A stretch of DNA of 64,000 nt from Candidatus Omnitrophota bacterium (GCA_043820815.1 JBDRDJ010000025.1:22459-86458), one strand, 5' to 3'. Shown: positions 13,771 to 55,467, counted from the stretch's first letter. Numbers and translations are program-made. The notes: generated by a model from the letters alone, not told the origin.

Positions 13771-13847
13771 ACATTTTGTTTAGAAGCTTCGCTTTCAGAT
13801 ACAAATCTTAAATTTGCGGGCTATCGAGTACGGGTTTTTGCGCCTTT

Positions 13848-15803: not shown

Positions 15804-15881
15804 CCGCTTCGCGGATGAAAGATTGAAAAATCCTCACAGATATATCCTTGAACTTATTTTATTATATCAAAATTAATAGTA

Positions 15882-15910
15882 TTGACAAGGTATTACCTCT
15901 TTGATATCTT
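15882..15910 (+). promoter_or_regulatory. Candidate sigma70-type promoter for the ABC transporter pair
   Basis: TTGACA (15882-15887), 17-nt spacer, TATCTT (15905-15910). The GTG start at 15917 lies about 7 nt downstream. It lies in the divergent intergenic region with wzc. Confidence 0.3.
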
Positions 15911-15916
15911 TTAGAA

Positions 15917-32189: not shown

Positions 32190-33489
32190 CTTTGTTTAAA
32201 CCTAAATCTGCAGGGGCTCTGCCTAAGAATTTCAGCATTTTTATCACTTCATCGACTTGGGACTTTAACCCATCGTTTATATGTGCTTTATCCGGATAAA
32301 TAGAATAAAGTTTTCTGCGGCTGATAGGTGTTACGTTAATCATAAGGGAATTCGCACCTGACATTAAACCTTTCTTTCTGGCATCAATACTTAAAGTTTC
32401 AAAAGCTGTTGTAACGGGAATTTTGGCATTTAGCGGATCAATTATACGCGCAAGGGCAATAACTTTAAGGACAAGATCCTGATTACAGGCAGGGTGGTTA
32501 CCTAAGGGAGTGCTCGGATGAGGGATAAACGGCCCAAAAGAATACATTTCGCAGCCAAGCTCTTTCGCTAAATATAAATCATTTATAATGTCATCATTCG
32601 TTTGGCCGGGAAGGCCGATAAGAGCGCCGGTCATGATAAGGTAGCCCATATCTTTAGCCGCTTTTAAATGTTTAATTCTTGTGCTTAAGTCATGATTTGG
32701 GTTGAGTCGGCAATATAGTTTTTCGTTTGATGTCTCAAATCTCAAGAGCAGCGCTCTTGCGCCGCAATTATAGAGTTCCTTAAGCCCCTCTACCCCTATT
32801 TCGCCAAAGCTTATTCCTATAAGGGTATCGGCGCCTTCCTTTATCTTTTTTACAATCATAGATAGATCCTTAATGGTGTATGAGGCAGTTTCTGCGCTTT
32901 GGAGAATAAGGGAGCCAAAACCGTAATCGCTAACAGCCCTAACGGCAGATTCAATCACTTCTTCATTTTTCATATGGTAACGAGGTATTTCTTTATTATG
33001 AATCGATATGCCGCAATAAAAGCAGTTACGTAAGCAATCGTTTGATATTTCGATTATTCCGTGAACACAACATGAGTTTTTGTGATATTTTTGACGGATA
33101 AAATTTGCCGCCTTAAGAAGTAAATCTAAATCTTTCGGGGCGTTAATATTAAGAAGGTAGGTAAGGTCGTTGCGAGAAAGCGCTATATTCTCCATGGCTT
33201 TATCAAGAATTAAGCGAAGTTTTTTATCAGTGGTTTCGTCCGGTTTAAAATCAGATAAGCGCCTGTCCACATCCTGAAGCTGGAAAAATAATTCTTTCCA
33301 GGCGCTAAGTATACTTTTTGCTTCATCCTCGGGTATTTTCTTTATTATGAATCCGCCCTGCGCGGAAACATAGTCGCCTTTTTCGAGCTTGTAGAATTCA
33401 TTCCGGGCTTTTTTCTCTTCGCCGAAGTAATCGACCAAGACTGTTGTGCCTTTAATATCCTTTACTATGCCTGGTATTGAATAACACAT
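32167..33489 (-). CDS. HypC/HupF-like domain fused to HydE-type radical SAM enzyme
   Basis: The N-terminal ~70 aa (MCYSIPGIVKDIKGTTVLVDYFGEEK...GDYVSAQGGFIIKKIPEDEA) fit the HypC pattern with Cys2. The remainder has CLRNCFYCG and BioB/HydE-like motifs (RFETSN, GLPGQT, FGPFIPHPSTPL). Confidence 0.7.
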   Translation of the reverse strand: MCYSIPGIVKDIKGTTVLVDYFGEEKKARNEFYKLEKGDYVSAQGGFIIKKIPEDEAKSILSAWKELFFQLQDVDRRLSDFKPDETTDKKLRLILDKAMENIALSRNDLTYLLNINAPKDLDLLLKAANFIRQKYHKNSCCVHGIIEISNDCLRNCFYCGISIHNKEIPRYHMKNEEVIESAVRAVSDYGFGSLILQSAETASYTIKDLSMIVKKIKEGADTLIGISFGEIGVEGLKELYNCGARALLLRFETSNEKLYCRLNPNHDLSTRIKHLKAAKDMGYLIMTGALIGLPGQTNDDIINDLYLAKELGCEMYSFGPFIPHPSTPLGNHPACNQDLVLKVIALARIIDPLNAKIPVTTAFETLSIDARKKGLMSGANSLMINVTPISRRKLYSIYPDKAHINDGLKSQVDEVIKMLKFLGRAPADLGLNKDEKNLYA

Positions 33490-33492
33490 ATC

Positions 33493-33735
33493 TTATTCTA
33501 TATCAAACGAGAGAACTTGAATTATTGTGCCGGGGAAAAAGGTAATTTCTAAGTCCGCGCCGCATAGAATTGTATCTTTTGTTAATAAAGCGAATGTTTC
33601 TTTAAATGATTCTTCTTTTACACAAGTTAAGTCACCGATTTTTAAGTGAATTTTTGTAACCTTTTTCGCATTTTCCTTTTGAGCGTGTTCACATATTCCT
33701 TTAACAACGGGCTCGATTAAGTGTGTTTCATGCAT
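33493..33735 (-). CDS. HypA-like nickel-metallochaperone N-terminal domain only (no zinc-ribbon)
   Basis: 80 aa starting MHE (HypA Ni-binding MHE motif), with VTKIHLKIGDLTCV. The CxxC...CxxC Zn module expected in ~113-aa HypA is missing. Confidence 0.55.
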   Translation of the reverse strand: MHETHLIEPVVKGICEHAQKENAKKVTKIHLKIGDLTCVKEESFKETFALLTKDTILCGADLEITFFPGTIIQVLSFDIE

Positions 33736-34196
33736 TTTTCCACCTCATTGATTGCTGAAACTAATAAATTTAAACTGTTTTTTACTTCCTCCGAAATCTC
33801 TGAACCAAAGGTAACATTTTTGGGTTGAATTCCCAGAAGATAAATCACGGCATTGGTTTCCTTCTCTAATATTTCTATGAGCATATTTGGGGAAAGATCG
33901 TGAGTTGTAAAGCCGCTTGGCAGTATATCTTCTTTTTTTAGCAGTTCATAGGATCCGCAGGCTGCATTAAGATGAACAGCATCTACCAACAAAACCGTAT
34001 CCGGTTTTTCTTTAATTACTTTGCCAATATAATTTTCAGGAGCAGTTCCGCAGTCGATACAAATAAAATCAGAAGTGTTTTTAAGGCTGTTGACAAAAAG
34101 AGGCCCAAACCCATCATCGCCGCGTAAAATATTTCCAATACCTGCGATAACAACCTTACCTTTAAGAATTTCCTTTAATCTTTCTTCTATTTTCAC
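33717..34196 (-). CDS. Hydrogenase maturation endopeptidase (HycI/HyaD family)
   Basis: GIGNILRGDDGFGP motif and later HDLSP. GTG start. Confidence 0.8.
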   Translation of the reverse strand: MKIEERLKEILKGKVVIAGIGNILRGDDGFGPLFVNSLKNTSDFICIDCGTAPENYIGKVIKEKPDTVLLVDAVHLNAACGSYELLKKEDILPSGFTTHDLSPNMLIEILEKETNAVIYLLGIQPKNVTFGSEISEEVKNSLNLLVSAINEVEKCMKHT

Positions 34197-34254: not shown

Positions 34255-34863
34255 TTACTCAGTAGTAAGCGTGGTTTGCCGCCTGCATCGGGCACAAAGG
34301 ATTTTTGACCTGTCACAGCGGCCAAAGTCACGCAATGCAGAAGTTAAATTATCATCAATAATGCCGAGGCTTTTAAGGCGTGATAAATACAGCGTGGGGT
34401 TTGAATAGGTAAGTTCTCCGATGCGTTCGGCAATCCATTTAAGATGGTCTTTAGGGCCTATAACAGCGCCGCAAATTTCGCATAACTGTAACTCTTTTTC
34501 AATTGTTTCATATGCTTTGGTTCTATCAAAGAATGAAAGTTCCCATTCATTTGAAAGTTTAATACCTTCATTATCGGCTATGCATGCTGCCTGGCACTGT
34601 CCGCAGAATATACAGGTATCAGTATAGTGAATCATAGTCCTTACGGGATTTTTAGCATCAGTAGAATCTTGATGAGCAATCGCCTCAACCGGGCAGACTT
34701 CTTCGCAGGAAAGGCAGCCCACGCATTTATCCGCATTGAATTTCGGCTGGCCCCTGAAATTAGGATGAGCGATATGCGGTTCTTTTGGAAATTTCGAGGT
34801 GTAAGGCCCCTTTATCAAAGCAACAACCGCCTCTTTTAGTTCTCTAAGTTTAGGTAGCTTCAT
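34255..34863 (-). CDS. 4Fe-4S ferredoxin-type hydrogenase subunit (NuoI/MbhN-like)
   Basis: CVGCLSCEEVCPVEAI and CIFCGQCQAAC dicluster motifs. Confidence 0.75.
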   Translation of the reverse strand: MKLPKLRELKEAVVALIKGPYTSKFPKEPHIAHPNFRGQPKFNADKCVGCLSCEEVCPVEAIAHQDSTDAKNPVRTMIHYTDTCIFCGQCQAACIADNEGIKLSNEWELSFFDRTKAYETIEKELQLCEICGAVIGPKDHLKWIAERIGELTYSNPTLYLSRLKSLGIIDDNLTSALRDFGRCDRSKILCARCRRQTTLTTE

Positions 34864-34901
34864 GATTTTTAATCTTTAATTTTTGATTTTTGATTTTATT
34901 A

Positions 34902-35234
34902 TCAGGCTTCGCCTTCCTTGTCTTCTTTATATTTATCAACCACGCTTTCATCGCAGAGCTTAACTCCTGCCCGGTGGGCTCCTCTTGCAATTGCATGGGC
35001 AGCAACAGGAGAAGTCAGCAAAAGAAAAACCATGCATAAAAGAGCTTTAAACCCTGCGGCAGTCGTGCCAACAATCAAAAATGTGCCGAATAAGATACTG
35101 CATGTCCCAAGAGTAACGCACTTAGTCGCCGCCTGCAGGCGGTTATATACATCGGGAAGCCTTACCAGGCCAATACAGCCGATTAAGTCAAAACCAAGCC
35201 CGATACTGATAAGTAAAAAGCCAATAAATTGCAT
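34902..35234 (-). CDS. Mrp/Mnh antiporter subunit G-like (MbhC-type)
   Basis: GCIGLVRLPDVYNRLQAATKCVTLG matches the MnhG core. Confidence 0.75.
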   Translation of the reverse strand: MQFIGFLLISIGLGFDLIGCIGLVRLPDVYNRLQAATKCVTLGTCSILFGTFLIVGTTAAGFKALLCMVFLLLTSPVAAHAIARGAHRAGVKLCDESVVDKYKEDKEGEA

Positions 35235-35620
35235 TATTCCTCGAATCCTTTTCCTTCTAAATATTTAGATAGGGCAAGAGTGCTGATAAAGCTTTGCAAA
35301 GCCCATGCTATAGCAATATCGATATACCACGACCGTTTAGTTACAATAGTAAAAATACAGCAAAGGCCGACTATCATTATTCCCATTATATCTATTGCAA
35401 CAATACGGTCTGCGCCGGTTGGCCCAAGCGCTATCCGAAATAAGGCCAAAGCGAAGGAAATAAGCAAAACATAAAATGACCTGCTTAAGAATCCCGCATA
35501 CGGCATATCGCTCCAAAAAAGAAGCGTTGGAGGACGCATTAAAACATAAGCCGCAAGGCCTATTAAAATTAATAACCCGAGAAGCCAACGCTTAAATGAT
35601 TTATTTTTCCGCAGTTTCAT
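35234..35620 (-). CDS. Mrp/Mnh antiporter subunit F-like (MbhB-type)
   Basis: LGPTGADRIVAIDIMG motif. 3-TM small protein. Confidence 0.7.
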   Translation of the reverse strand: MKLRKNKSFKRWLLGLLILIGLAAYVLMRPPTLLFWSDMPYAGFLSRSFYVLLISFALALFRIALGPTGADRIVAIDIMGIMIVGLCCIFTIVTKRSWYIDIAIAWALQSFISTLALSKYLEGKGFEE

Positions 35621-35626
35621 AATTTG

Positions 35627-36124
35627 CTATTCAAATATTTTAATCAATATTTTTTCAAAACGTTCAACTATAAGTTTAGTAGCCTGTTGTACATCTTTTG
35701 CTTTTACGTCGATCCAGTGAATGTAGAGAAAGCCGTTATCCTTATCAATATCCACGCTTAGGGTTCCCGGAGTAAGGGTAATAGAATTAGCAAGGAAAGT
35801 AAGTGCAGTATCAGTCTTTAAATTTGTTTTTACCTTAACAATTCCCGGGTTAATCGGAAGCATTGGGTGAACGACACGCCAGGCAACATCAATATTTGCT
35901 TTAAAACATTCCCAGATAAAGACCGGTAAATAGCAAGTAAAGAAATACCAGTATCTCAAAGGATGCCTTAAGATATGTGGACGGTTTATGAATAAGTCAC
36001 CTGTAAGAAAAGCTGTTAAAGCCGCAGCAAATATACCAATTATTATATGCTGGATATCCGGCGGCCAGTTTAGGAGCAGCCAGGTTACATAAGCAACAAT
36101 AAATAACACTAATCTTCGTTTCAT
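35627..36124 (-). CDS. Mrp/Mnh antiporter subunit E-like (MbhA-type)
   Basis: ITLTPGTLSVDIDKDNGFLYIHWIDV motif. Confidence 0.7.
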   Translation of the reverse strand: MKRRLVLFIVAYVTWLLLNWPPDIQHIIIGIFAAALTAFLTGDLFINRPHILRHPLRYWYFFTCYLPVFIWECFKANIDVAWRVVHPMLPINPGIVKVKTNLKTDTALTFLANSITLTPGTLSVDIDKDNGFLYIHWIDVKAKDVQQATKLIVERFEKILIKIFE

Positions 36125-37623
36125 TTTAAACCCTTTGAGATAATCTGCTTATAATCACTACCGTCGTAAAGGACTTTCGCTGCTTTTTCAAGAAAAACTT
36201 CTTTAGCAGGCTTTATTAAAAGCAGGCCGCTTATCAAACACAGAAAGGCAAGCATAGTCATTGAAATTTTCATGAAAAAGGGAATCTTTTTAATCTGGGT
36301 TAATTTAGCTGATAGCTCGCCAAAGAACACATTCTTAAGGACTTTTAGATACATTGCTAAGGTCAGAATGCTAACCAACACCGCACATAACGCATATTGG
36401 TTGTGTCCTGCTTCTACACATGCGATTATAATAATTAATTTGCTAAAAAAACCTCCAAAAGGCGGAATTCCCGCTATAGACATCGAAGCGATTATGTTTG
36501 TATTCCTTGTTACCGGTAATTTCTCTGCCAAACCGCCCATCTGGCGCATATCTCTGGTACCTGTTGCGTATTCTACGGCGCCGGAATTAAGAAATAGAAG
36601 CGATTTAAACAATGAGTGGTTGAAAAGATGAAAAAGGCCGCCCATTATTCCCAAAGGTGTATTTAATCCAATACCTAAAACAATATAGCCAACCTGGCTT
36701 ATTGAAGAGTAGGCTAAAAGCCGCTTGAAATCCCATTGGCCTATGGCAAGTATCGCGCCTATTACCATGGATATTGCTCCTAAAAACATAAGTATTGAAG
36801 AAAAAGCAGAAGTCATTCCCAATACATTGTAGAAAATTCTGCAAATAGCATATATTCCAAGAGATTTTATCAATATTCCCGACAAAAGAGCCGATATCGG
36901 CGCCGGAGCCGAAGGGTGAGCATCAGGAAGCCAGGCATGAAAAGGGATGAGCGCTGATTTTAGGCCAAATCCCATAATAAAGATTGCGCTTACAAGAAGA
37001 ATTATTTTTGACGGGCCATTTTGACTTATTACAATTGCCATATCAGCCATATTAAGGGTTGAAGTGTAGCTGTATAAAAATACAATACCAAGCAGTATAA
37101 AAAGAGACGCCACCGTGCCCATTACCGCATATTTAAAAGCAGCTTCAAGTTCATGGCGTTCGGTTCCAAAAGCGACAAGAGCATAACTTGCAATTGAGGC
37201 AATTTCAAGGAAAACAAAAAGATTAAACAAATCCCCGGTTATAACAACACCATTCATTCCAGCCAGCATAAGCATAAAAAGAGTATAAAATTTCCATTTA
37301 GAGGTAAATTTCTTCATGTAATCAACAGAAAAAATAGAAACTAATAAAGCGACAAGGTTTATTACAATCAGCATAAAAGCGCTTAAGGAATCCAGCACAA
37401 AGGAAATCCCGTAGGGGGGTATCCAGCCGCCGATTTTATAAATTAGCGGGCTTTCAAGAGAAGAAAAGAATGCCGCGAATAATGAGCATACGAATAAAGA
37501 CAGTGCGGCTATATTTCCCGCAGCATCAGCAATACCTTTTACTTTCTTGCCTAAAAGTGAGATTAGAAATGCGGCAAATAAAGGTATAGCAACAAAAAAC
37601 GGCAAGATAGAAACAATATTCAT
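36121..37623 (-). CDS. Proton-conducting antiporter-like subunit (MrpD/NuoN/MbhH-like)
   Basis: 500-aa polytopic protein with FHAWLPDAH, LAYSSISQVGY and HSLFKSLLFL motifs. Confidence 0.8.
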   Translation of the reverse strand: MNIVSILPFFVAIPLFAAFLISLLGKKVKGIADAAGNIAALSLFVCSLFAAFFSSLESPLIYKIGGWIPPYGISFVLDSLSAFMLIVINLVALLVSIFSVDYMKKFTSKWKFYTLFMLMLAGMNGVVITGDLFNLFVFLEIASIASYALVAFGTERHELEAAFKYAVMGTVASLFILLGIVFLYSYTSTLNMADMAIVISQNGPSKIILLVSAIFIMGFGLKSALIPFHAWLPDAHPSAPAPISALLSGILIKSLGIYAICRIFYNVLGMTSAFSSILMFLGAISMVIGAILAIGQWDFKRLLAYSSISQVGYIVLGIGLNTPLGIMGGLFHLFNHSLFKSLLFLNSGAVEYATGTRDMRQMGGLAEKLPVTRNTNIIASMSIAGIPPFGGFFSKLIIIIACVEAGHNQYALCAVLVSILTLAMYLKVLKNVFFGELSAKLTQIKKIPFFMKISMTMLAFLCLISGLLLIKPAKEVFLEKAAKVLYDGSDYKQIISKGLK

Positions 37624-37958
37624 CCTCTAAGCTCCCGGATTTTGGTTATATCAAAAGTTCCGTACTTTTCGTATATTCTCATGGCAATTGCAATTAATAA
37701 GGCTGTTGAGGCAAGGCTTATTACAATTGAAGTAAGTACAACCGCCTGCGGCAGGGGATCAACCATTATTTTAATGTCGGAATCCAGAGAATGTATTGGT
37801 GAGCGCCCGCCTGTTTTATAACCGACAAGAATAAACAGTAAATTTACCGCATATTCAGCAATTACTATACCGACAATAATTTTAATTATATTACGCTTTC
37901 GTACAATACAGTAAAGTCCTGTGCAGAAAAGGCCCAGACATAACAGATACAGCGACAT
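37620..37958 (-). CDS. Mrp subunit C / NuoK-like (MbhG-type)
   Basis: 112-aa 3-TM protein in the expected position. IIVGIVIAEYAVNLLFIL and DPLPQAVVLTSIVI. Confidence 0.7.
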   Translation of the reverse strand: MSLYLLCLGLFCTGLYCIVRKRNIIKIIVGIVIAEYAVNLLFILVGYKTGGRSPIHSLDSDIKIMVDPLPQAVVLTSIVISLASTALLIAIAMRIYEKYGTFDITKIRELRG

Positions 37959-38407
37959 TATTTATCCTCCGTATCGAATTTTAATAAAATTAAGGCTGTA
38001 AAGATTGCAAATAACCCCGCCCCTACTTTAAGGCTGATTGCGATATTTGATAAAGGTATTGTTCCGGCGCTAAACAGCCTGAAAGGGCGGCCTAAGGGGA
38101 GGAAATTATAAAAGAAATAGCCTCCGGTTAAGCCGGCCAAAGCGATAGCTAAGAACATGAGCGCGCCGAAATTTTCGAAAAAAGATGTTCTTGACTTTGA
38201 AAGTTTATCAAGGGCTGCTTTCTTTCCGTAAGCAAGCATCAAATGTATAAATGAAAGTGCAATTATTACTCCTCCGGCGAATCCTCCCCCCGGGGAAATA
38301 TGGCCGTGAGAAAGGATATGGATTCCGTAAAGCAAAATTAAACCTACGGTAAGGCGGGTTATTGTCTTAACGATTACCGACATTCCTTCATCATGTTCTT
38401 TACTCAT
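37958..38407 (-). CDS. Mrp subunit B-like (MnhB domain; MbhF-type)
   Basis: GHISPGGGFAGGVIIA is the MnhB-domain signature. The start was set at the internal MSKEH (8-nt overlap with the upstream stop). The track ORF extends to 38464. Confidence 0.7.
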   Translation of the reverse strand: MSKEHDEGMSVIVKTITRLTVGLILLYGIHILSHGHISPGGGFAGGVIIALSFIHLMLAYGKKAALDKLSKSRTSFFENFGALMFLAIALAGLTGGYFFYNFLPLGRPFRLFSAGTIPLSNIAISLKVGAGLFAIFTALILLKFDTEDK

Positions 38408-38990
38408 CGTCTTCCTCTGATAAAAGCCCTTCTTCTTTTCTTCCTTTTTTGCGCACAAGCGCAAGGACGCCTATTACAGCCGTAAACAGAACTGTTGCTT
38501 CGCCTATGGTATCGTAGGCACGGTAATCAAGTATTACCGCGGAAACAAGATTTGCCGCGCCGGTTTGCCTAAAGTTTAGCTTACTGGAATCAATAGCTGC
38601 CGGGTTTTTTATAAATCCTTCCTCAAGGTATTTTTTGGATACTCTCATAATAGGTTTTCCAAACTGAGGTAAATCTGAAAGGGCTTTTGCGGATATGAAT
38701 AAAAATAAAATTATGAAACAAACAGCAATCGAAGTGTTTAGAAGCCATCTGCCGGTTGTTGAAAAAGGCAAATCTTTTTTTAAGGTAGCACGGATTAGTA
38801 TGATTAAACAGAGAATTTCAACAACTAACTGAGTGATTGCAACATCCGGTGCCTTCAGCAATAAAAACATTATAGACAGCGCAAGGCCGATTGCACCGAC
38901 AGCTATAACCGAAGACAAGAGATCCTTAACCTCAATAGCAATTATTGCTCCTGCGATCATAAATAAAATTAAAATGTGAAGTTCTAACAT
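38400..38990 (-). CDS. MbhD/MbhE-like membrane subunit (DUF4040 + MrpA-C-terminal-like region)
   Basis: APDVAITQLVVEI (DUF4040-like) and NLVSAVILDYRAYDTIGEATVLF motifs. Confidence 0.6.
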   Translation of the reverse strand: MLELHILILFMIAGAIIAIEVKDLLSSVIAVGAIGLALSIMFLLLKAPDVAITQLVVEILCLIILIRATLKKDLPFSTTGRWLLNTSIAVCFIILFLFISAKALSDLPQFGKPIMRVSKKYLEEGFIKNPAAIDSSKLNFRQTGAANLVSAVILDYRAYDTIGEATVLFTAVIGVLALVRKKGRKEEGLLSEEDDE

Positions 38991-39041
38991 AGCACTGACA
39001 GCCTTTTAAAAAATAATAAAAAGTAATATACCTAATACAAG

Positions 39042-40652
39042 TTAACACCAGGCAAGATATGTAGGTAATATACCGTTATGTAAGTGCCCGAATATTCTGT
39101 TTCCGGCAAGTATTAAATTCTTTAATACTGCATAGATATCAAAAAGTTTAATTTTGGCTGCGCTGTAAATAACTTTTATAAACGGAAGATCTTTAACTGT
39201 ATCATAGAAAGATACTCCCGATATTTTCATGCCGGGATGCTGTTTGGCATCTTCACCTCCGACAAAAATATCAGTCTGGCGCATTTTCTGAAATGATCCC
39301 ATTAGATAAATGACGAATCCAACCGCAACGCCCGCAATCAACAGCAATGTCGCAAGGCTCGCATTCCACATTCCGGCAAAAGTTACGTCTTTGTCTATGG
39401 TTGAGAAGATGAACAGCCCTAAGGGAATACGGTATGCAAAAACACCAAAAACAACACATAAAACAGCAAGAATTACATTAGGCAGCCACATTTGGACAGA
39501 AACTTCTTGGGGTTGAGAAACTTCAGAAGTTGAACCGTTTATTTTTGTAGGTTGGCCTAAAAATACAGCGTGAATTAATTTCATAAAGCTTGCCAGAGTA
39601 AGTGCGCTTCCAAAAAGTGCGGCAACAAGCCATAAAACCCAAAGCCCCGATGAGCCCCTAGAAGTTTCAATGACCCCTTGATATATCATCCATTTTGATG
39701 CAAAACCGTTTAAAGGAGGGATTCCTGATATGGCCAGCGATGCAATTAAGAAACACGCAAATGTTATCGGCATAAATTTAGCAATGCCGCCAAGCTTATC
39801 GAGGTCGGTAGTTGATGTCTTTTTTTGGACTGACCCGGCAGAAAGGAATAATGAATATTTGTAAATAGCGTTATTAAGCATATGAAAAAGCCCCCCGGCA
39901 ATTCCTATGGGGGTTAAGGTTGCAATTCCAAGAACCATATAGCCAGCCTGGCTTACAGCATGGTATCCAAGGAGCCGTTTCATGTCATGCTGGATTAAAG
40001 CCATCATTACAGCGGCGATAATTGTAAAACTCCCTATTGCCATCATGAATGTGCTCATCTTTGCATCTAAAACAAACAAATCTATGGTTATGCGCGTAAA
40101 GAAATAAATTCCGATTAGTTTATCAAGGCACGCCGGAAGGTAAGCGGCAACCGGTATGGGTGCATCCTCTGCCGCATCAGGAACCCATGTGTGAAAAGGC
40201 ATAACTCCTGCTTTGGCAAATGCGCCTGCCGCAAGGCATAGGTATGCCCAAACCGCAAGCTTCGAATTAAGTAATATGCCCGGTTGGCTTAAGGAAAGGT
40301 CGCGTGTTAATTTCCATATAAGGGCAAGCCCCATGATCATGATAGCGTCAGTGCCGCCTACAATAATAAAGGTTTTTTTAGCGGTTTTAAGGGCAGCGGG
40401 ATTTTGATCAAAGCCGATTAAAAGGTAAAGCAACAGGCCTAAGAATCCCCAGAAAACCATCAATACAAGAAGATTACCTGCAAACACCGCTCCCAGCGAA
40501 ACAATTAAAGTAGCAAAAATATAAATAAAAAAACCAACAAGCCTTTTAGATTGCTGCATAAACCCTAATGAATAAACTGCAATAAATACAGTAAAAAGGC
40601 ATATAAAGAATCCCACAAACGCCGATAGGCTATCAATAGAAAAATAATGCAT
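39042..40652 (-). CDS. Proton-conducting antiporter-like subunit (MrpA/NuoL-like)
   Basis: 536-aa polytopic protein with FHTWVPDAAE, LGYHAVSQAGYM and HMLNNAIYKYSLFL. Confidence 0.8.
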   Translation of the reverse strand: MHYFSIDSLSAFVGFFICLFTVFIAVYSLGFMQQSKRLVGFFIYIFATLIVSLGAVFAGNLLVLMVFWGFLGLLLYLLIGFDQNPAALKTAKKTFIIVGGTDAIMIMGLALIWKLTRDLSLSQPGILLNSKLAVWAYLCLAAGAFAKAGVMPFHTWVPDAAEDAPIPVAAYLPACLDKLIGIYFFTRITIDLFVLDAKMSTFMMAIGSFTIIAAVMMALIQHDMKRLLGYHAVSQAGYMVLGIATLTPIGIAGGLFHMLNNAIYKYSLFLSAGSVQKKTSTTDLDKLGGIAKFMPITFACFLIASLAISGIPPLNGFASKWMIYQGVIETSRGSSGLWVLWLVAALFGSALTLASFMKLIHAVFLGQPTKINGSTSEVSQPQEVSVQMWLPNVILAVLCVVFGVFAYRIPLGLFIFSTIDKDVTFAGMWNASLATLLLIAGVAVGFVIYLMGSFQKMRQTDIFVGGEDAKQHPGMKISGVSFYDTVKDLPFIKVIYSAAKIKLFDIYAVLKNLILAGNRIFGHLHNGILPTYLAWC

Positions 40653-40654
40653 TG

Positions 40655-41839
40655 CTATGTTTTGAACCTTCTTCGAATCTTTTCCGTTTTTTCCTGAGAT
40701 AATTTAACTAAATCCTGGCCGTTGTAAAGTTTCTTTCCCTTTTCGTCGCGCACTGCTATTCTTTCAGTACAGCAATAACAGGGGTCAATCGCCGCAAGAA
40801 TTATTGTCGCGTCGGAAATTGTCTCGCCAATAACAGTGGATTTATATGTAGGTAAATTCATAAAAGTAGGGGCCCTGACTTTATGCCTTGCCGGCCGGTT
40901 AGTGCCGTCGCTTCTAACATAATGAAAAGTTTCGCCCCGCGGGGCTTCTATATGGCCGATGCCTTCACCCGGAGGTATATCGGTTATGTTTGCATCAATC
41001 TCGCCTTTTGGGAGGCTCTTAAGGCAGTATTTAATTATCTTGATTGATTCAAAAGTTTCCAATATTCTTACTACGGCTTTGTCAAACACATCGCCGTTAT
41101 TCGTTACAATCATCTCCCAGTCCATCTGATCATACGCACCGTAGGGGCAGTCTTTTCTTAAGTCTCTGGCAATTCCTGACGCGCGTGAAGTTGGGCCTAA
41201 GGCGCAGTAGCTTATCGATTCTTCTTTGGTAAGTATTCCGATTCCCTTTGTCCGTGCGTGCAAAACAGGATCGTCGAGGACGGCTTTTTTAAGCATTGTA
41301 AGTGCAGGCACAATAGAGTCAATCTTTTTTAACACGCCGGGTATGTCATCCGCTGATATATCTCGGCGTACCCCCCCCGGTTTAAACATCGCATAATTAT
41401 TTCGATTGCCTGAGAGGACTTCCATTACATCAAGTATTTCCTCCCGGAGTTTCCACGCCCACATAAATACTGTGTTATAGCCTAAAAAATGGCCTGCCAA
41501 GCCAAGCCAAAGTAAATGAGAGTGAATGCGTTCGCCTTCAGCAATTATTGTGCGTATATATTTTGCTCGCAGTGGAACTTCTATGGGGATTATGTCTTCA
41601 ACCGCGCGGGTATAAGCAAAGGGATGGCTTGTCGAACATATCCCGCAAATGCGCTCAATAACGAATGTTGACTGGTCAAAAGTCTTGCTTTCAGAAAGTT
41701 TCTCTATGCCGCGGTGATTATAGCCAATTGAGACATCAATATCCACAACTTTTTCCCCCTCAACAGTAAGTGTGAAAAACTCCGGTTCTTCCTGCAAGGG
41801 GTGGTATGGGCCAATCGGAACTATTGTCTTTTTCGCCAT
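40655..41839 (-). CDS. Group-4 [NiFe] hydrogenase large subunit (MbhL/EchE/HycE-type, NuoD-like)
   Basis: N-terminal RICGICSTSH and C-terminal DPCYCCTER Ni-binding Cys pairs. A 34-aa tail after CCTER is consistent with endopeptidase processing. Confidence 0.9.
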   Translation of the reverse strand: MAKKTIVPIGPYHPLQEEPEFFTLTVEGEKVVDIDVSIGYNHRGIEKLSESKTFDQSTFVIERICGICSTSHPFAYTRAVEDIIPIEVPLRAKYIRTIIAEGERIHSHLLWLGLAGHFLGYNTVFMWAWKLREEILDVMEVLSGNRNNYAMFKPGGVRRDISADDIPGVLKKIDSIVPALTMLKKAVLDDPVLHARTKGIGILTKEESISYCALGPTSRASGIARDLRKDCPYGAYDQMDWEMIVTNNGDVFDKAVVRILETFESIKIIKYCLKSLPKGEIDANITDIPPGEGIGHIEAPRGETFHYVRSDGTNRPARHKVRAPTFMNLPTYKSTVIGETISDATIILAAIDPCYCCTERIAVRDEKGKKLYNGQDLVKLSQEKTEKIRRRFKT

Positions 41840-41890
41840 CTTTTTACTTTTTCTTCAGGCCATAAGCCATTTGCAATTTGTCATTGGTCA

Positions 41891-42400
41891 TTAAACACCT
41901 CTATCTCTTATCGCACCGTTATCCCACTCCTGATAATCACGGCGTAAAGGATAAAGCCCTTCTGGCCATTCATCGGGTAAAAGGAGCCTGCGTAAATCAG
42001 GGTGGCCTATGAAATTTACGCCTAAGAGTTCATGGATTTCTCTTTCTATCCAGTTTGATCCTTTAAAAACTCTGGTTAAGGAATCAATCTCTAATTTATC
42101 TTTTGCGAGAACGGCTCGAAGCGAAATAACTAAATTAATTTCTTCTATTGTAAAATGGTAAAGAATTTCAATTGTGTGCGGACAGTCAACGCCCGAGGCA
42201 ATATTAAACCTTGCGCCCAGGCCGTTAAAAATATACGTAGCTATCTTAACCAGGCCTTGGGATTTTATTTCAAAATAAACGCGTGTTTGTGATTTGTCTA
42301 TAGTGTTAACAATCGAATCCTTGAAACGCGTTTGTAGATCTTGTAAAATTTCTTCTTTGTTCATTTTGAGAATTTTATTTACCTGTTTTAACTTTTTCAA
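41891..42400 (-). CDS. NuoC/MbhK-like hydrogenase subunit
   Basis: NWIEREIHELLGVNFIGHPDLRRLLL motif. The start may be the internal MNKEEIL at 42364. Confidence 0.8.
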   Translation of the reverse strand: MKKLKQVNKILKMNKEEILQDLQTRFKDSIVNTIDKSQTRVYFEIKSQGLVKIATYIFNGLGARFNIASGVDCPHTIEILYHFTIEEINLVISLRAVLAKDKLEIDSLTRVFKGSNWIEREIHELLGVNFIGHPDLRRLLLPDEWPEGLYPLRRDYQEWDNGAIRDRGV

Positions 42401-42800
42401 TAAGTTTAACCACCCCTGCTATTATAGCTTCAGGTTTAGGGGGGCAACCCGGGATGTAAACATCCACGGGAATTATTTTATCAACAGGAACCGGGCAATT
42501 ATAGCTGTGTATGAACATTCCCCTTGATAAAGAACATTCCCCAATTGCAACGACTAAGCACGGTTTAGGCATCTGGGTGTAGACATTTTTTATCCTGGGT
42601 ATGCATTTTCTGTTTGCCGAACCGGTTACAAGAAGGACATCGGCATGTTTAATGCTTCCGGCTAAAAGCATGCCGAATCTTTCTATATCAAACCTCGGCG
42701 TTAAACAGTCGAGGATTTCAATATCACAGTTGTTACAGCTTCCGGTTGAGAGATGAAATACCCATGGTGATTTAAGAAGCGCCTTTAGTTTTATATTCAT
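42375..42800 (-). CDS. Group-4 [NiFe] hydrogenase small subunit (NuoB/MbhJ-like)
   Basis: GSCNNCDIE, GECS and PGCPPKPE cluster-binding motifs. Confidence 0.85.
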   Translation of the reverse strand: MNIKLKALLKSPWVFHLSTGSCNNCDIEILDCLTPRFDIERFGMLLAGSIKHADVLLVTGSANRKCIPRIKNVYTQMPKPCLVVAIGECSLSRGMFIHSYNCPVPVDKIIPVDVYIPGCPPKPEAIIAGVVKLIEKVKTGK

Positions 42801-42821
42801 ATAAATCTAAATATAAGTTTT

Positions 42822-43745
42822 TTATTTTCCAAGCAAAGCTAAAAAAACCGCAAACAGGGATATCAACGTCATCGGCCCCCAGAAAAAACGCATTGCCTGG
42901 TCTATTCTAACACGGGGGTTTGTATTGCGTATAACTGTTACTAATGCAACCAGGCCGACATATTTAAGAGGAATAAAAAAAATCTTATAACCGTTAAAAC
43001 TAAATCCTCCCAAAAGTAAAATAATTACGAGCAATGGCAGAGCAACAAGAAGCATATATTTCATCAGCCTGTAAATTGCAAGGCCTCCTCCGGAATATTC
43101 TATCAACGGGCCGCTTACAATTTCTGTTTCTGCTTCAGGAATATCAAAAGGCACAAGCGCTAATTTAGCCTGGACACACATAATAACAACTATTAATGCT
43201 AAGAAACCGGAAAGGCTTAAGGCAAAAGCGCCATTTGTAACCTGATAAAACACTATATCACCCAAACGCAGTGAAAAACCGGATTTAATTATCGGCACGC
43301 AAACAGCCAGCACAAACGGCAGTTCGTAGCTTAAAACGAGTTTCATTTCTCGAGAGGCACCAAGGCTTGCAAGGGGATTTTTCGATGCAAAGCCGCCTAA
43401 AATAATACTTATTGAAGGAATAAGCAATAAATACATAATCACAAAAATATCGCCTAAGAATGATTTAAAGGGGTTAAATAATGTAAGCCATAGAACCGTT
43501 GAAACAACGGCAACTGACGCTAGGCCGATAAGAGGGGCGCCGAAGAACACTGTTTTATCGGCTCCGTAAGGCATAAGAGTTTCTTTGCCAAGAAGCTTAA
43601 TGATATCTAAGGCCGGCTGAAGCAAGGGCGGCCCAACGCGGTACTGGAGGCGGGCGGTAACTTTTCTATCAATCCAGCTCGCCAGGATTCCTACCATGCC
43701 GGTTAAAATAAACCCGAAAACAATTAAATAAAATATATAAATCAT
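42822..43745 (-). CDS. NuoH/HycD/MbhM-like membrane subunit
   Basis: DRKVTARLQYRVGPP motif. 307-aa, 8-TM protein. Confidence 0.8.
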   Translation of the reverse strand: MIYIFYLIVFGFILTGMVGILASWIDRKVTARLQYRVGPPLLQPALDIIKLLGKETLMPYGADKTVFFGAPLIGLASVAVVSTVLWLTLFNPFKSFLGDIFVIMYLLLIPSISIILGGFASKNPLASLGASREMKLVLSYELPFVLAVCVPIIKSGFSLRLGDIVFYQVTNGAFALSLSGFLALIVVIMCVQAKLALVPFDIPEAETEIVSGPLIEYSGGGLAIYRLMKYMLLVALPLLVIILLLGGFSFNGYKIFFIPLKYVGLVALVTVIRNTNPRVRIDQAMRFFWGPMTLISLFAVFLALLGK

Positions 43746-44299
43746 GCTTTATCAAATTGCCAATGCGTTGAATGAACAATTATACTATCCCCCACAAGAA
43801 AAGAGTGCTCATCTAATTCTATATCTCCGCTTTTAAGGCTAAGGGCACCATGGGGACATGATGAAATGCAAAGAGGCTCGTTGGCGCTGCTTCTTCTGTT
43901 AAGACAGAAATCGCAATTATGAATAAAAAGCGGAACATGTTCCGGATAAATCGTTCCATAAGGGCAGGCGTGAGAGCATGATTTACAGCTAATACAGCGC
44001 ATGTTGTGGCGGATAAGGAGTTTACCTTTCTCTGATTGCTGCTCTAACGCTTCCTTAGGACAGGAATTAACGCAATGCGGTTCTTCGCATTTTCTGCATA
44101 CTAAGGCATATGTTGCCAGTTCGCAAACAGACACAATGCCATTGTTGTCAGGATGGTAGTAATAGCTGCATTTGACTACACAATCCTTGCATTGCCCCGC
44201 AGAACAAATATCTAAATCAACGAATAGCCGCTTATCGCTCGCCCCCTTCGGGTTAATATTCAGTTTACCTTGATGCAGCTGTTGTGCGCTTGTGTCCAT
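43742..44299 (-). CDS. Poly-ferredoxin-like 4Fe-4S protein (HycB/DmsB-like)
   Basis: CRKCEEPHCVNSCP, CISCKSCSHACPYG, and CDFC...CISSCP motifs. Confidence 0.7.
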   Translation of the reverse strand: MDTSAQQLHQGKLNINPKGASDKRLFVDLDICSAGQCKDCVVKCSYYYHPDNNGIVSVCELATYALVCRKCEEPHCVNSCPKEALEQQSEKGKLLIRHNMRCISCKSCSHACPYGTIYPEHVPLFIHNCDFCLNRRSSANEPLCISSCPHGALSLKSGDIELDEHSFLVGDSIIVHSTHWQFDKA

Positions 44300-44302
44300 T
44301 TT

Positions 44303-45118
44303 TTAATCCCAGATGTCCGGGAAGTTCTTAATTTGTTTGTAAGTAAAAACCGGGCCGTCTTTGCATGCGTAATAAGTCCCAAGCCGGCAATGCCCGCATT
44401 TACCAATGCCGCAGGACATATTCTTTTCCATTGAGAGATACATATTATCTTCTTGAAATCCCATATCAAGGAGCTTTTTTGTTGCAAACTTCATCATGAC
44501 TGGAGGCCCGCAGACAATCGCGATACCTTTTGAATAATTCATTTTTACGTCATCAATTATGGTTGTGACTACGCCGACATTTCCCTTCCAATCAGCTCCG
44601 GCCTTATCCACGGTTAGTTTTATATTAAGGTCTTTTCTCTTTTTCCATTCCTCCATTTCGCTTTGGTAAACGAGTTCTTTAGGCGTTTTACATCCTCCGC
44701 GAAAGTAAAGTTTCTTAAATTGTCCCTTTCTTTCAAAGAATTCATACATCAGGCTTCTTAAAGGAGCGAATCCGCAGCCTCCGCCGACAACTAAAATTTC
44801 TTTATCGCGAAAGTCATCCACAGGATAGCCCTTACCTAATGGCCCCCGCACGCCTATCTTGTCGCCTTTTTTCAGCTCGTAGATTTTCTCGGTTACCTTA
44901 CCGGCCTTCATAACCGTCACTTCCATTATATCCTTAACTGAAGGTTTTGAGGATGGAGTGAAGGGGGCTTCTCCTACTCCCGGTATGGTTAGCTCGATGA
45001 ATTGTCCGGTTTCGAAAGCTATTGGTTCTCGGGGTTTAAAACGTATGGTTATTATCGTAGGTGTCTCTAAAATCGTTTCGATGACCTCTGCTTCTATAGG
45101 GCGATAGGGATTTTTCAT
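44303..45118 (-). CDS. FAD/NAD(P)-binding 2Fe-2S oxidoreductase subunit (AsrB / sulfhydrogenase gamma / PyrK-like)
   Basis: FNR-like N-terminus, GGGCGFAPLRSL nucleotide-binding motif, and C-terminal CGIGKCGHCRLG. Confidence 0.75.
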   Translation of the reverse strand: MKNPYRPIEAEVIETILETPTIITIRFKPREPIAFETGQFIELTIPGVGEAPFTPSSKPSVKDIMEVTVMKAGKVTEKIYELKKGDKIGVRGPLGKGYPVDDFRDKEILVVGGGCGFAPLRSLMYEFFERKGQFKKLYFRGGCKTPKELVYQSEMEEWKKRKDLNIKLTVDKAGADWKGNVGVVTTIIDDVKMNYSKGIAIVCGPPVMMKFATKKLLDMGFQEDNMYLSMEKNMSCGIGKCGHCRLGTYYACKDGPVFTYKQIKNFPDIWD

Positions 45119-45126
45119 AACGCTTT

Positions 45127-46155
45127 TTAACCGACTAAATTCTTTAACACTTTACGTATATCTATCTTAGCCGGGCACGCTGTAATACAGCGGCCGCACC
45201 CGGTGCAGGCATAAAAGTTGGCAACCTTAGGGAAGTAATCAAATTTTTTCTCAAACCTGTTGCGAAGGCGCATCCAAAGCTTTCCGCGCGGGTTAGCCCC
45301 TCCTGCAACGCGTGCATAATCCTTTAACATACAGGAATCCCATGTTCTTAGCCTTGCCATTTGGCCCTGGTTTTCTTGGTCATAGAGCAAAAAGCAATGG
45401 CAGGTCGGGCAAATCGCCGTGCATGCCCCGCATTCAACACATGTTTTCGCCTCATCCTGCCACAAGGCTGATTCCCAGTTGCGTTCGATTATTCCGGAAA
45501 AACTTTCCTGTGCGGGAATGCAATTTGCTGATATATTGGCGTTAACTTCATCTCGAACCCGGATTCGAAGGGCTTGTCTTTTAGAAATCTGCCTGTCGTG
45601 TGCATCTTCAAAAAAGGGAGCGTTATCTTCAATTATTTTTTTTCCTTTCTCAGAGCCGGATTCCGCGATAAAACCGTCTCCTACCCGGGAAAGATTGATG
45701 TCAAAATTATTCTGAGGGTAAGGCAAAATTCCAACCGCACAGCAGAAGCACGTCTCAATCGTGCATGTGCAGTCACTTGAAATAATAAGATTTTCTTCGC
45801 GGAATCTTAAATAAAACGGGTCAGGGTAATCGTGGTTACTAAAAACATGGTCATGGACCAGGAAACCCTTAAGATCGCACGCTTTAGCGCCTACAATGCA
45901 GAATGGTTTTTTGGCTGACACCGGAGAGCATTCAGAGAAATCTTGGGCAACTACTTCTCTTGCCCGGGTGAAGAAAGATTTTAAGGGTTCAAAGGCGCGG
46001 ACTTCCCCGACAACTATTTCCTCTTTTGATCCGGAATAATTAACGTAATATCTTTGATTGCCTTTTTTTACGGGGACAAAGATCTCATAAGCCGTACTGA
46101 GGGAATCGAGAAGCGTATATAAATTATTAAAAGGAATATAAAGTAAATCCGGCAT
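45127..46155 (-). CDS. 4Fe-4S protein (AsrA / sulfhydrogenase beta-like)
   Basis: CVECGACTAICPTCHCF and CTGCGRCITACPAKIDI motifs. It is the first gene after the promoter and Rex box. Confidence 0.65.
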   Translation of the reverse strand: MPDLLYIPFNNLYTLLDSLSTAYEIFVPVKKGNQRYYVNYSGSKEEIVVGEVRAFEPLKSFFTRAREVVAQDFSECSPVSAKKPFCIVGAKACDLKGFLVHDHVFSNHDYPDPFYLRFREENLIISSDCTCTIETCFCCAVGILPYPQNNFDINLSRVGDGFIAESGSEKGKKIIEDNAPFFEDAHDRQISKRQALRIRVRDEVNANISANCIPAQESFSGIIERNWESALWQDEAKTCVECGACTAICPTCHCFLLYDQENQGQMARLRTWDSCMLKDYARVAGGANPRGKLWMRLRNRFEKKFDYFPKVANFYACTGCGRCITACPAKIDIRKVLKNLVG

Positions 46156-46176: not shown

Positions 46177-46194
46177 TTGTGAATAAAATCACAA
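46177..46194 (-). promoter_or_regulatory. Rex operator (near-consensus inverted repeat)
   Basis: TTGTGAATAAAATCACAA compared with the Rex consensus TTGTGAAnnnnTTCACAA (one mismatch). It lies 22 nt upstream of the first hydrogenase-operon start codon and 9 nt downstream of the predicted -10. rex is encoded in the same operon. Confidence 0.7.
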
Positions 46195-46203: not shown

Positions 46204-46232
46204 ATATTAACATAAACCAATAGCCGTGTCAA
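46204..46232 (-). promoter_or_regulatory. Sigma70-type promoter of the hydrogenase operon
   Basis: The minus strand reads TTGACA (46232-46227), an exact 17-nt spacer, then TAATAT (46209-46204). Confidence 0.6.
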
Positions 46233-46285: not shown

Positions 46286-46585
46286 TTATTTGTTTGGCGA
46301 TTGGATTAGGTTACTGGTTTTCAGTAATTTAATTTTCTTTGATGAGGCAGCTACTATGCACACCCAAACAACAACTGTGACAGCGCTGATAACAAAACCC
46401 AGTAAAATGTCGCTTGCGAAATTATCAGAAATAAGGAACAGCTCTTTATTCCATAGATGATCCACAACACCAAAAAGCGCTCCTCCGTAAAACATAAGGT
46501 TCAGCCACCGGATTTTAATATTTTTCGTTTTTTTCCATATACCCGATGTAATAATTGCTCCTGCCAGCGGCACTGCGTAGCACAT
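46286..46585 (-). CDS. Small hypothetical membrane protein (about 3 TM)
   Basis: 99-aa hydrophobic ORF preceded by a strong AAGGAGGA RBS. No recognisable family. Confidence 0.45.
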   Translation of the reverse strand: MCYAVPLAGAIITSGIWKKTKNIKIRWLNLMFYGGALFGVVDHLWNKELFLISDNFASDILLGFVISAVTVVVWVCIVAASSKKIKLLKTSNLIQSPNK

Positions 46586-46642: not shown

Positions 46643-47689
46643 TTAATTAAATTTGTTCAAGATGCCTAAAGCGAGTATGGCGACTTCCTGGGGCGCAATC
46701 TTCTTAAGGCACAGAAAACCTTTTTTGCAGTTGTGGGCGAGGCATTCGCTGCATCCGGCATCTTTATGAATATAGTATGAGTTTTTGCCTAAGGGCTTCC
46801 AGCGCAGAGGTGAAAGCCCGGGGTCTTTGCGGCCGAAGATAGATATAACAGGGGTTCCAATGGCAGCGGCAATATGAACAGGGCCTGAGTCGTTGGAAAT
46901 GAAAAGCGCCGCCTTTTTCAAAAGTGATGCGGTTTGTACGATAGTCAATTTGCCTCTTAAGTCAACTACTTCATTATTCTCAACAATCAGCTTGCCGAAC
47001 CCCTCCTCTCCCTTGACGGTAATTATAATAATTTTAAGATTGCTTTTTTTTTGCAGCATTTTTACCAGTTCCGAATAGTTGTCCTGCGGCCATCTTTTTG
47101 ATGGGCATGAGGCAGAGGGGTGAATGACAACAAATTTACTGCCATCCTCTATCTTAAGATTTGACAGAATGATTGATATTTGCTTCTCCGCTTCATGGCT
47201 GAGAGGAAAATGCAGACAGGTATCTTCGACTGTTAAGCTTAAACTCCGCAGGATATCAAGGTTGAACTCTGACTCATGTTTTAGACCGTCTTGCTTTACA
47301 TGAGGTAACCGCTTTGAAAGCAGAAAACCCATCTTTCTATCCCAACCCACTCTAAAAGGGATACCTGCAATAAAAGAAATTAAATGGGCGCGGTTTGTGG
47401 GGTGTAAGATTATTGACCAATCAAAGTGTTTTCTCCTGATGAAAAAAGCAAATTTAATGGTTGAAAGCAAGCTTTTTTGTTTGCCGTATTTGTCATAAAC
47501 TATCACTTCGTCTAAATATGGGTTTCGGTTAACTGCTTCGTAAGTATAAGGGCGGCATAAAAAGCCTATATGGGCATGGGGAAAGTTTTTTCTAAGCACG
47601 GAAATCACAGGAGTTGAAAGAATAACATCGCCGAGCCGGTCCGTGCGCACTATTAAAATCTTTTTCGGTGGGTTTCTGGTTTTTGCCAT
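46643..47689 (-). CDS. GT9-family glycosyltransferase (heptosyltransferase-like)
   Basis: ILIVRTDRLGDVILSTPVISVL and NDSGPVHIAAAIGTPVISIFG. The start was set at the internal MAKTRNPPKK. The track ORF extends to 47764, overlapping the upstream gene. Confidence 0.75.
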   Translation of the reverse strand: MAKTRNPPKKILIVRTDRLGDVILSTPVISVLRKNFPHAHIGFLCRPYTYEAVNRNPYLDEVIVYDKYGKQKSLLSTIKFAFFIRRKHFDWSIILHPTNRAHLISFIAGIPFRVGWDRKMGFLLSKRLPHVKQDGLKHESEFNLDILRSLSLTVEDTCLHFPLSHEAEKQISIILSNLKIEDGSKFVVIHPSASCPSKRWPQDNYSELVKMLQKKSNLKIIIITVKGEEGFGKLIVENNEVVDLRGKLTIVQTASLLKKAALFISNDSGPVHIAAAIGTPVISIFGRKDPGLSPLRWKPLGKNSYYIHKDAGCSECLAHNCKKGFLCLKKIAPQEVAILALGILNKFN

Positions 47690-47705
47690 ATCTAACCTTA
47701 AAATA

Positions 47706-49684: not shown

Positions 49685-49694
49685 TGAAATTAGC

Positions 49695-50456: not shown

Positions 50457-50495
50457 ACAATATCACCTAACCTTTATTTTTCCTTTCAATATAGG

Positions 50496-53653: not shown

Positions 53654-53655
53654 CT

Positions 53656-55464: not shown

Positions 55465-55467
55465 CTT

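Follow-up and report, generated by a model that had tools for sequence, protein, structure and literature searches.

From which electron carrier does a membrane-bound [NiFe] hydrogenase draw its electrons, or to which does it deliver them, when its operon opens with genes for an iron-sulfur flavoprotein arm of the kind found in sulfhydrogenases? The question is raised by a stretch of 64,000 nucleotides (below, the window) from a Candidatus Omnitrophota bacterium (GCA_043820815.1 JBDRDJ010000025.1:22459-86458), in which 16 genes, all on the minus strand between positions 46155 and 34255, combine relatives of the beta and gamma subunits of the Pyrococcus furiosus group-3b hydrogenase SHI with a ferredoxin, a group-4 hydrogenase core similar to the membrane-bound enzyme Mbh, and an antiporter module of the Mrp type. 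An earlier sequence-only reading had listed these genes in this order, and calling of open reading frames (ORFs) together with a Pfam search agrees with it in coordinates, strand and gene identities. Judged from homology and synteny, the balance tips somewhat towards a single membrane complex that would act as a reversible, ion-coupled NAD(P)H:H+ oxidoreductase.

The arm and its promoter

The first gene of the operon (45127-46155, minus strand) encodes an iron-sulfur protein of 342 residues with a Fer4_22 domain, and the second (44303-45118, minus) a protein of 271 residues in which FAD_binding_6, NAD_binding_1 and DHODB_Fe-S domains point to FAD, NAD(P) and a [2Fe-2S] cluster. Both match the corresponding subunits of SHI, an NADPH-dependent enzyme, from end to end (PDB 9nez_B, E 4.7e-41, for beta; 9nez_C, E 1.6e-55, for gamma), in keeping with the proposal that they form a diaphorase pair of the group-3b sulfhydrogenase type. 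They are relatives rather than members of the ShyB/HydB or Asr families, since all NCBIfam scores remain below the curated cut-offs: beta is placed nearer to ShyB/HydB (ShyB, 174 bits) than to AsrA (113 bits, cut-off 323), and the top score of gamma is on AsrB (245 bits, cut-off 288.6). The third gene (43742-44299, minus; 185 residues, Fer4_11) codes for a polyferredoxin of the CooF/HycB type, whose PDB relatives are FdnH, NrfC and HDCR HycB3/4.

The cofactor motifs of these three proteins are 82-100% conserved over 72-80 related sequences. The 15 cysteines of beta, conserved to 100% in 80 sequences, can be read as the ligands of about three [4Fe-4S] clusters and the 16 conserved cysteines of the ferredoxin as those of four, while the APFTPSS, GGGxGxAP and four C-terminal cysteine motifs of gamma are 97-100% conserved in 79 sequences. 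Gamma also has conserved basic residues that follow the second strand of its NAD domain, but these are too weak a sign to argue for NADH or NADPH. The beta protein is only 29% identical to the beta subunit of genuine Omnitrophota group-3b operons, and the group-4-linked arm can therefore be regarded as a lineage of its own. Gamma is 41-44% identical to the gamma subunits of group 3b, as compared to a gamma/ShyC threshold of 35% used in one survey, and the gamma and beta genes of such loci may be miscounted as sulfhydrogenase. Beyond beta and gamma the resemblance to SHI ends: the group-3 large (alpha) and three-cluster small (delta) subunits of the heterotetramer are lacking, the enzyme encoded in the window is predicted to be membrane-bound, and genuine Omnitrophota 3b operons look different (loci L090, L091 and L094). 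Natural fusions of beta (P0148, P0172, P0230 and P0243) were checked for informative partners and gave response-regulator and kinase domains or nothing; P0148 and P0172, from a library of representatives at 50%, carry an N-terminal response-regulator receiver domain, in one of them accompanied by a histidine-kinase ATPase domain.

The similarity to Asr proteins calls for two other explanations to be considered. That beta and gamma are the remnant of a sulfite reductase, an objection which the sequence-only reading had itself raised, was ruled out, since neither the operon nor the annotated window showed an AsrC, siroheme or other sulfite-reductase partner. It is also improbable that H2-derived electrons are passed by beta and gamma to another cytoplasmic acceptor such as polysulfide, S0 or sulfite, with NAD(P) not being the partner. 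The preference of gamma for the AsrB model, the match of beta to AsrA and the reduction of S0 by SHI in vitro (literature cited in PMC8542988) would agree with such a function, but the same lack of a siroheme subunit argues against it, as do the higher score of beta on ShyB/HydB, the strict conservation of the GGGxGxAP NAD-binding motif and the FAD motif in gamma, and control by Rex, which is a mark of NAD(H) balance.

The evidence for such control lies directly upstream of the beta-like gene. Inspection of the sequence and a promoter scan indicated a sigma-70-type promoter at 46204-46232 on the minus strand (TTGACA-17 nucleotides-TAATAT, with a TG extension), followed by a predicted Rex operator, TTGTGATTTTATTCACAA, at 46177-46194, starting 10 nucleotides past the -10 box and ending 21 nucleotides before the ATG of beta. 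The operator has one mismatch to TTGTGAAN4TTCACAA and is the sole match in the 64 kb window. As far as sequence can tell, the operator at the promoter and a rex gene in the same operon (31539-32189, minus; NF003995, 252 bits) place the operon in a Rex regulon. Since promoter and operator directly precede beta, the beta and gamma genes can be taken as the first cistrons of the hydrogenase operon. Intergenic gaps across the operon range from -4 to +58 nucleotides and measure 3-8 nucleotides from beta and gamma to their next genes; no convincing terminator was found within the operon, with 12 terminator-like sites against 17.4 expected. In 18 of 76 related loci a Rex-type operator lies upstream of beta or rex (overall, 30 such sites occur in 1.15 Mb of locus DNA), and 19 of 80 have a detected rex gene immediately in front of beta. 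The suggestion that the arm belongs to a Rex-controlled hydrogenase operon is thus supported by the single promoter, the tight spacing and the uninterrupted unit, and its opposite, a separate transcription unit for beta and gamma, also disagrees with the invariant gene order in relatives described below.

Hydrogenase core and related loci

Downstream of the arm, again on the minus strand, follow genes for a NuoH/MbhM-like membrane anchor (42822-43745; PF00146, 218 bits), a NuoB-like small subunit with four cysteines for the proximal cluster (42375-42800; PF01058 and sequence inspection), a NuoC/MbhK-like subunit (41891-42364; PF00329) and a group-4 large subunit of the NuoD type (40655-41839; PF00346, PF00374 and PDB matches), whereas the gene for the NuoI/HycF-like subunit, of 202 residues and with two predicted [4Fe-4S] clusters, stands last of the 16 (34255-34863, minus; Pfam and PDB). 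The NuoC-like ORF is open from a TTG at 42400, but the ATG at 42364 is the likelier start and gives 157 residues, matching two Omnitrophota relatives (L001 and L002). A one-cluster, NuoB-like small subunit with NuoC-, NuoI- and NuoH-like partners is what defines group 4. The large subunit carries both ligand motifs of the Ni-Fe site (RICGICSTSH and DPCYCC, for RxCGxC and DPCxxC), followed by a C-terminal tail of 33 residues that is predicted to be cleavable; because motifs and tail are present, it is regarded as a hydrogenase and not as a relative of the Mbx/Ehr type. Both motifs are kept in all 58 full-length relatives. The protein is about equally near to MbhL (PDB 6cfw_L, 2e-87) and HycE (7z0s_E, 1e-82), and scores only 51 and 28 bits on the ShyA/HydA models, which have cut-offs of at least 700.

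Between the large subunit and the NuoI-like gene lies the Mrp-type module (all genes minus strand, assigned by Pfam). It comprises a first antiporter-like subunit of the MrpA-N/NuoL type (39042-40652; Proton_antipo_M, PF00361), an MbhD+MbhE-like protein equivalent to the C-terminal part of MrpA (38400-38990), MrpB/MnhB (37958-38410, with an ORF that is open from a TTG at 38464 but more likely starts at the ATG at 38410), MrpC/NuoK (37620-37958; Oxidored_q2), a second antiporter-like subunit of the MrpD/MbhH type (36121-37623; Proton_antipo_M), MrpE (35627-36124; MNHE), MrpF (35234-35620) and MrpG (34902-35234), and the presence of this entire set in one cluster is typical of the Mrp-linked Mbh enzymes in the sense of HydDB groups 4d and 4b. 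The two antiporter-like subunits that had been claimed are indeed there. The second, of 500 residues, is a full-length MbhH/MrpD homologue (6cfw_H, 1.2e-84; 7qru_D, 1.6e-78), and the first, of 536 residues, lacks about 75 residues (three helices) found at the start of its NuoL/MrpA homologues; its length is conserved, at 550-552 residues, in the Omnitrophota contigs L002 and L083. Equivalents of the large subunit, MbhH/MrpD, MbhN, MbhD/E and MrpE-G of P. furiosus Mbh (4d, 6CFW) are thus all encoded in the window; the archaeal enzyme differs in having free ferredoxin as donor, one antiporter-like subunit, no beta/gamma/CooF arm and another gene order. The additional arm would speak for an electron partner other than ferredoxin, or for one besides it.

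To see how common this combination is, one genome per GTDB species was scanned with an alignment of ten beta homologues, and the best 80 of 552 confirmed hits were kept; six-frame ORFs of each locus were searched with the window proteins, and presence counts were corrected for contig reach. The 80 loci have beta proteins 38-65% identical to that of the window and are labelled, in public records or their titles, with about 15 phyla. The labels, mostly those of metagenome-assembled genomes (MAGs), include Omnitrophota, Planctomycetia, Atribacterota, Sumerlaeota, Spirochaetota, Elusimicrobia, Clostridia, Nitrospirota, Fermentibacteria, Hydrogenedentota, Aerophobetes, Eisenbacteria, Kiritimatiellae and Actinomycetes. 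Named carriers are Candidatus Tritonobacter lacicola (L064) and a cultured sulfate reducer, Desulfosarcina variabilis str. Montpellier (L026).

Where the DNA reaches, gamma is found in 75 of 75 loci, the ferredoxin in 68 of 68, NuoH in 65 of 65, NuoB in 62 of 62, NuoC in 57 of 57, the large subunit in 55 of 55 and the first antiporter in 47 of 50. The order beta-gamma-ferredoxin-Mbh-Mrp is kept in every locus of sufficient length, apart from exceptions in the placement of Mrp. The three loci without the antiporter at its usual place (L023, L024 and L030; two Spirochaetota MAGs and one unclassified bacterium) have divergent Mrp genes upstream of beta on the opposite strand, with NuoI and HycI directly after the large subunit. 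In a closed Omnitrophota genome of 1.43 Mb (L001, CP070780.1), the cluster rex-beta-gamma-ferredoxin-NuoH-NuoB-NuoC-large subunit (542-6504) is followed by unrelated genes, and no Mrp, NuoI or HycI genes adjoin it. The survey of other group-4 operons for AsrA/AsrB-like neighbours that had been recommended was run from the side of beta and gave an arm next to a group-4 core wherever the DNA of the 80 loci extended that far. Since the order recurs throughout these loci as far as the DNA extends, it is not due to chance. The identities of seven subunits, among them beta, gamma, the ferredoxin, NuoH, the large subunit and MrpD, fall in parallel across the loci: the large subunit shows 74-89% identity in clade A and 62-68% in clade B, and beta 46-67% and 37-50%, respectively. 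The arm is strictly co-inherited with the Mbh-Mrp core.

These data bear on the notion that beta and gamma form a separate soluble enzyme which merely neighbours an ordinary ferredoxin-dependent Mbh. Genome papers in which loci of this kind appear simply as 'Mbh group 4g + Mrp' would be in line with it, but with one promoter and operator before beta, gaps of 3-8 nucleotides, a gene order that is invariant among about 15 labelled phyla, co-varying identities and a distinct beta lineage that, among the 80 best matches, occurs only with group-4 cores, we consider it very improbable indeed.

The architecture as such is already known, which goes in part against the novelty that the sequence-only reading implied. 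A group-4 hydrogenase of Saganbacteria RX5A was described with Mrp subunits and an 'oxidoreductase module' of an unclassifiable molybdopterin protein, cooF, asrA and asrB, and its nearest relatives were found in Omnitrophica and Zixibacteria (Matheus Carnevali 2019, PMC6349859). The name 'Mbh-Mrp-oxidoreductase type', with unknown function, was later used for enzymes of Elusimicrobia (Meheust 2020, 10.1101/765248). Homologues of SHI beta and gamma, together with a degenerate formate dehydrogenase (Fdh), were reported in group-4b clusters, for which a bifurcating network of H2, NADPH and an unknown substrate was proposed on the basis of AlphaFold models (Front Microbiol 2026, PMC13582414). Omnitrophota enzymes and that of Tritonobacter, from the MAG that also gave L064, were filed as 'group 4g Mbh, Mrp-linked, ferredoxin-dependent', without mention of beta and gamma (Williams et al. 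2021/2022); the HydDB subgroup 4g is described as loosely clustered and polyphyletic.

The window shares with the Mbh-Mrp-'oxidoreductase' clusters the AsrA/SHI-beta-, AsrB/SHI-gamma- and CooF-like genes beside a Ni-Fe-competent large subunit and Mrp, but those clusters include a molybdopterin or Fdh-like subunit, often degenerate, of which the annotated parts of the window showed none. What the present analysis adds is the molybdopterin-free form, which is very widespread and strictly conserved, the separation of its beta/gamma lineage from group 3b, and the recurrence of Rex control across loci. An association of this form with an Fdh-like protein was considered and rejected: the large ORFs (311-841 residues) tested upstream of beta in ten of the 80 loci encode unrelated SLT/TPR, InlB-repeat, PAS-kinase, Usp and permease proteins. 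A gene for a PhoU-domain protein of about 205-226 residues separates the large subunit from the first antiporter-like subunit in loci of clade B (L075:5710-6327, L082:15350-16030 and L066:12720-13337) and has no counterpart in the window.

Electron partner and direction

In the mechanism that we favour, the Mbh-type core (large, NuoB-, NuoC-, NuoI- and NuoH-like subunits) would be seated on the complete Mrp-type module, and the electron port on the cytoplasmic side would be formed by the three-protein arm of gamma, beta and the CooF/HycB-type ferredoxin instead of a site for free ferredoxin. Electrons from NAD(P)H would pass via FAD and the [2Fe-2S] cluster of gamma to the approximately three clusters of beta, the four of the ferredoxin, the two of the NuoI-like subunit and the one of the NuoB-like subunit, and finally reach the Ni-Fe site. 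The ferredoxin would serve here as the connector between beta and the NuoI-like subunit. A template for such a wire is the formate hydrogenlyase (FHL) chain FdhH-HycB-HycF-HycG-HycE of Escherichia coli (4a, 7Z0S), in which a four-cluster ferredoxin and HycF connect a soluble dehydrogenase with the hydrogenase; beta and gamma would stand where FdhH stands. FHL differs in using formate as donor and in lacking an Mrp E/F/G set, and no molybdopterin protein was seen in the annotated window. The best PDB match of the NuoI-like subunit is HycF (7z0s_F, 1.8e-15), followed by MbhN (6cfw_N, 4.6e-12), and the slightly closer similarity to the subunit on which HycB docks in FHL was counted in favour of the proposed arm. 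The independent NADPH branch proposed from AlphaFold models for the sister group-4b clusters is also consistent with it (PMC13582414). We infer the docking of the arm, the nucleotide that is used, the direction and the ion stoichiometry from sequence comparisons.

The standard potentials of NAD(P)H (-320 mV) and H2 (-414 mV) are such that the pair operates near equilibrium, and the enzyme should consequently be reversible. When H2 is low, or when a Na+ or H+ gradient acts as driving force, NAD(P)H could be disposed of as H2, whereas at high H2 the reduction of NAD(P)+ would be accompanied by ion export and conservation of energy. Rex lets go of its promoter as the NADH/NAD+ ratio rises, and because the operon would thus be de-repressed at high NADH, disposal of NAD(P)H appears the favoured role under inducing conditions.

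Several points weigh against this proposal. Free ferredoxin might still be accepted by the four-cluster ferredoxin or by the NuoI-like subunit. If ions are exported at the same time, formation of H2 from NAD(P)H is endergonic under standard conditions, and a simple NAD(P)H-driven pump is for this reason workable only at very low H2. The support for the arm comes from homology and gene context. The genes of the arm and catalytic core can be parted from those of the Mrp module, as the closed Omnitrophota genome (L001) and the three loci with divergent Mrp genes (L023, L024 and L030) illustrate. Finally, Rex control had been taken to fit an NAD(P)H-linked enzyme, and the predicted operator and the rex gene agree with this, but Rex also regulates ferredoxin-dependent hydrogenases in other bacteria and therefore cannot discriminate between NAD(P)H and ferredoxin as the partner.

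The most serious competing explanation retains ferredoxin as the donor and gives beta and gamma the role of a second branch, either in a confurcation-like hydrogenase using ferredoxin and NAD(P)H, or in an ion-coupled ferredoxin:NAD(P)+ oxidoreductase with H2 formation as overflow valve. It is possible, although in our judgement rather unlikely. The nearest solved cores, those of Mbh and FHL (6CFW and 7Z0S), take up electrons at the NuoI-like end, the four-cluster ferredoxin holds more clusters than a linear wire requires, and ferredoxin input would make ion export energetically feasible. Furthermore, the Fe-S network predicted for the sister group-4b enzymes is three-way, with bifurcation or confurcation proposed (PMC13582414), and the lack of an Fdh-like third branch in the window may leave a docking face free. 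On the other hand, a known flavin-based bifurcation site is missing, gamma being of the PyrK/NfnA type and not equivalent to the bifurcating flavin of Nfn, SHI itself is non-bifurcating, and the loci examined show no ferredoxin gene linked to the cluster.

Should the arm indeed connect NAD(P)(H) with the Ni-Fe site, the enzyme would be a complex-I-like machine with protons as acceptor. The analogy is functional: complex I shares the nucleotide-oxidizing flavoprotein arm, the Fe-S wire, the NuoB/C/D/H/I core and the antiporter-like pumps, but has NuoEFG where the window encodes a non-homologous module (a gamma of the PyrK/FNR type, with FAD instead of FMN), and delivers to quinone and not to H+ at a Ni-Fe site. 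Fermenting and syntrophic organisms would then have a means of converting NAD(P)H to H2 that needs no electron-confurcating [FeFe] hydrogenase, or of gaining energy from the reduction of NAD(P)+ with H2. The interpretation of metagenomes would change as well, the usual label for loci of this type being 'ferredoxin-dependent Mbh, group 4g'. An enzymatically characterized NAD(P)H-dependent Mbh was not found in the literature. Since the cluster occurs in MAGs from about 15 labelled phyla as well as in a cultured sulfate reducer, the coupling is directly testable.

Maturation genes and neighbourhood

The operon runs on past position 34255 to about 30039 and includes, besides rex, genes for maturation. 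These encode, all on the minus strand, a HycI-type endopeptidase for the large subunit (33717-34196; PF01750), a short HypA of 80 residues (33493-33735; PF01155), a protein of 440 residues in which HypC (residues 1-76, N-terminus MCYSIPG) is fused to a HydE-like radical-SAM domain (32167-33489; TIGR03956, 239 bits against a cut-off of 254.6), and, beyond rex, a HydG-type radical-SAM enzyme of 498 residues with a variant C-terminal cysteine motif (30039-31535; TIGR03955, 428 bits against a cut-off of 312). The Omnitrophota contigs L002 and L083 repeat the gene order of the window including this tail. In this tail, maturases of the [FeFe] type are encoded within a [NiFe] operon. It may matter more than the architecture of the arm, and touches on the long-open question of the source of the CO ligand of [NiFe] hydrogenases in anaerobes.

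The HypC~HydE fusion, of which no report was found in the literature, occurs in at least 120 protein clusters, and each of those with a named source is assigned either to Omnitrophota/Omnitrophica or to an unclassified bacterium. Metagenome contigs show the cassette HycI-HypA-HypC~HydE-(Rex)-HydG behind either the group-4 operon described here or a group-3b operon of the order beta-gamma-delta-alpha, the latter in L088, L090, L091 and L094; an [FeFe] hydrogenase was never seen to precede it in the flanks. In L094, genes for HydF, HydG and HydE lie directly upstream of the 3b genes, and the radical-SAM domain of the fusion is only 34% identical to this plain HydE. The HydG of the cassette has the motif SFCTAGYRCGRTGxC...FCKLNA (Cx5Cx5C) in the window as well as in L083, L085, L086, L088, L090, L091, L094 and L099, whereas the canonical CTACYR (CxxC) is kept in L097 and L098. 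The annotated portions of the window show no genes for HypD, HypE, HypF, HydF or an [FeFe] hydrogenase, and the first three are likewise not seen in those flanks of the cassette that were examined.

A tentative and rather doubtful suggestion is that the tail stands in for HypD, HypE and HypF in this Omnitrophota lineage, with the Fe(CO)(CN)2 unit, or its CO only, derived from radical-SAM chemistry of the [FeFe] type. The variant HydG would then produce diatomic ligands from tyrosine, and the HydE-like domain would pass the iron unit to the large subunit with the help of the fused HypC. In favour of this stand the conservation of the fusion, the placement of the cassette after [NiFe] operons, and the HypF, HypD and HypE genes carried by sister-clade operons of this enzyme. 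Genes for HypD, HypE and HypF and for an [FeFe] hydrogenase may, however, be located elsewhere in these genomes. In clade-B Omnitrophota operons, a half-size HypF of 374-382 residues, with the Kae1-like domains only, is encoded directly upstream of beta (L047:4706-5854 and L050:5353-8765), in L050 together with HypD and HypE; the radical-SAM cassette is not visible in these two loci, both of which end before the tail of the operon.

Upstream of the promoter, a hydrophobic ORF of 99 residues (46286-46585), which has its own promoter-like site at 46634-46607, was excluded from the system, having no family match and no counterpart in any of the related loci. The operon is flanked on both sides by genes for lipopolysaccharide and glycan synthesis (872-20349 and 46643-57757), with many GT9 heptosyltransferase-like proteins, LpxK, a Kdo transferase, Wzy and Wzz, and a gene for a recombinase of the XerC/D type is located at 57879-58760.

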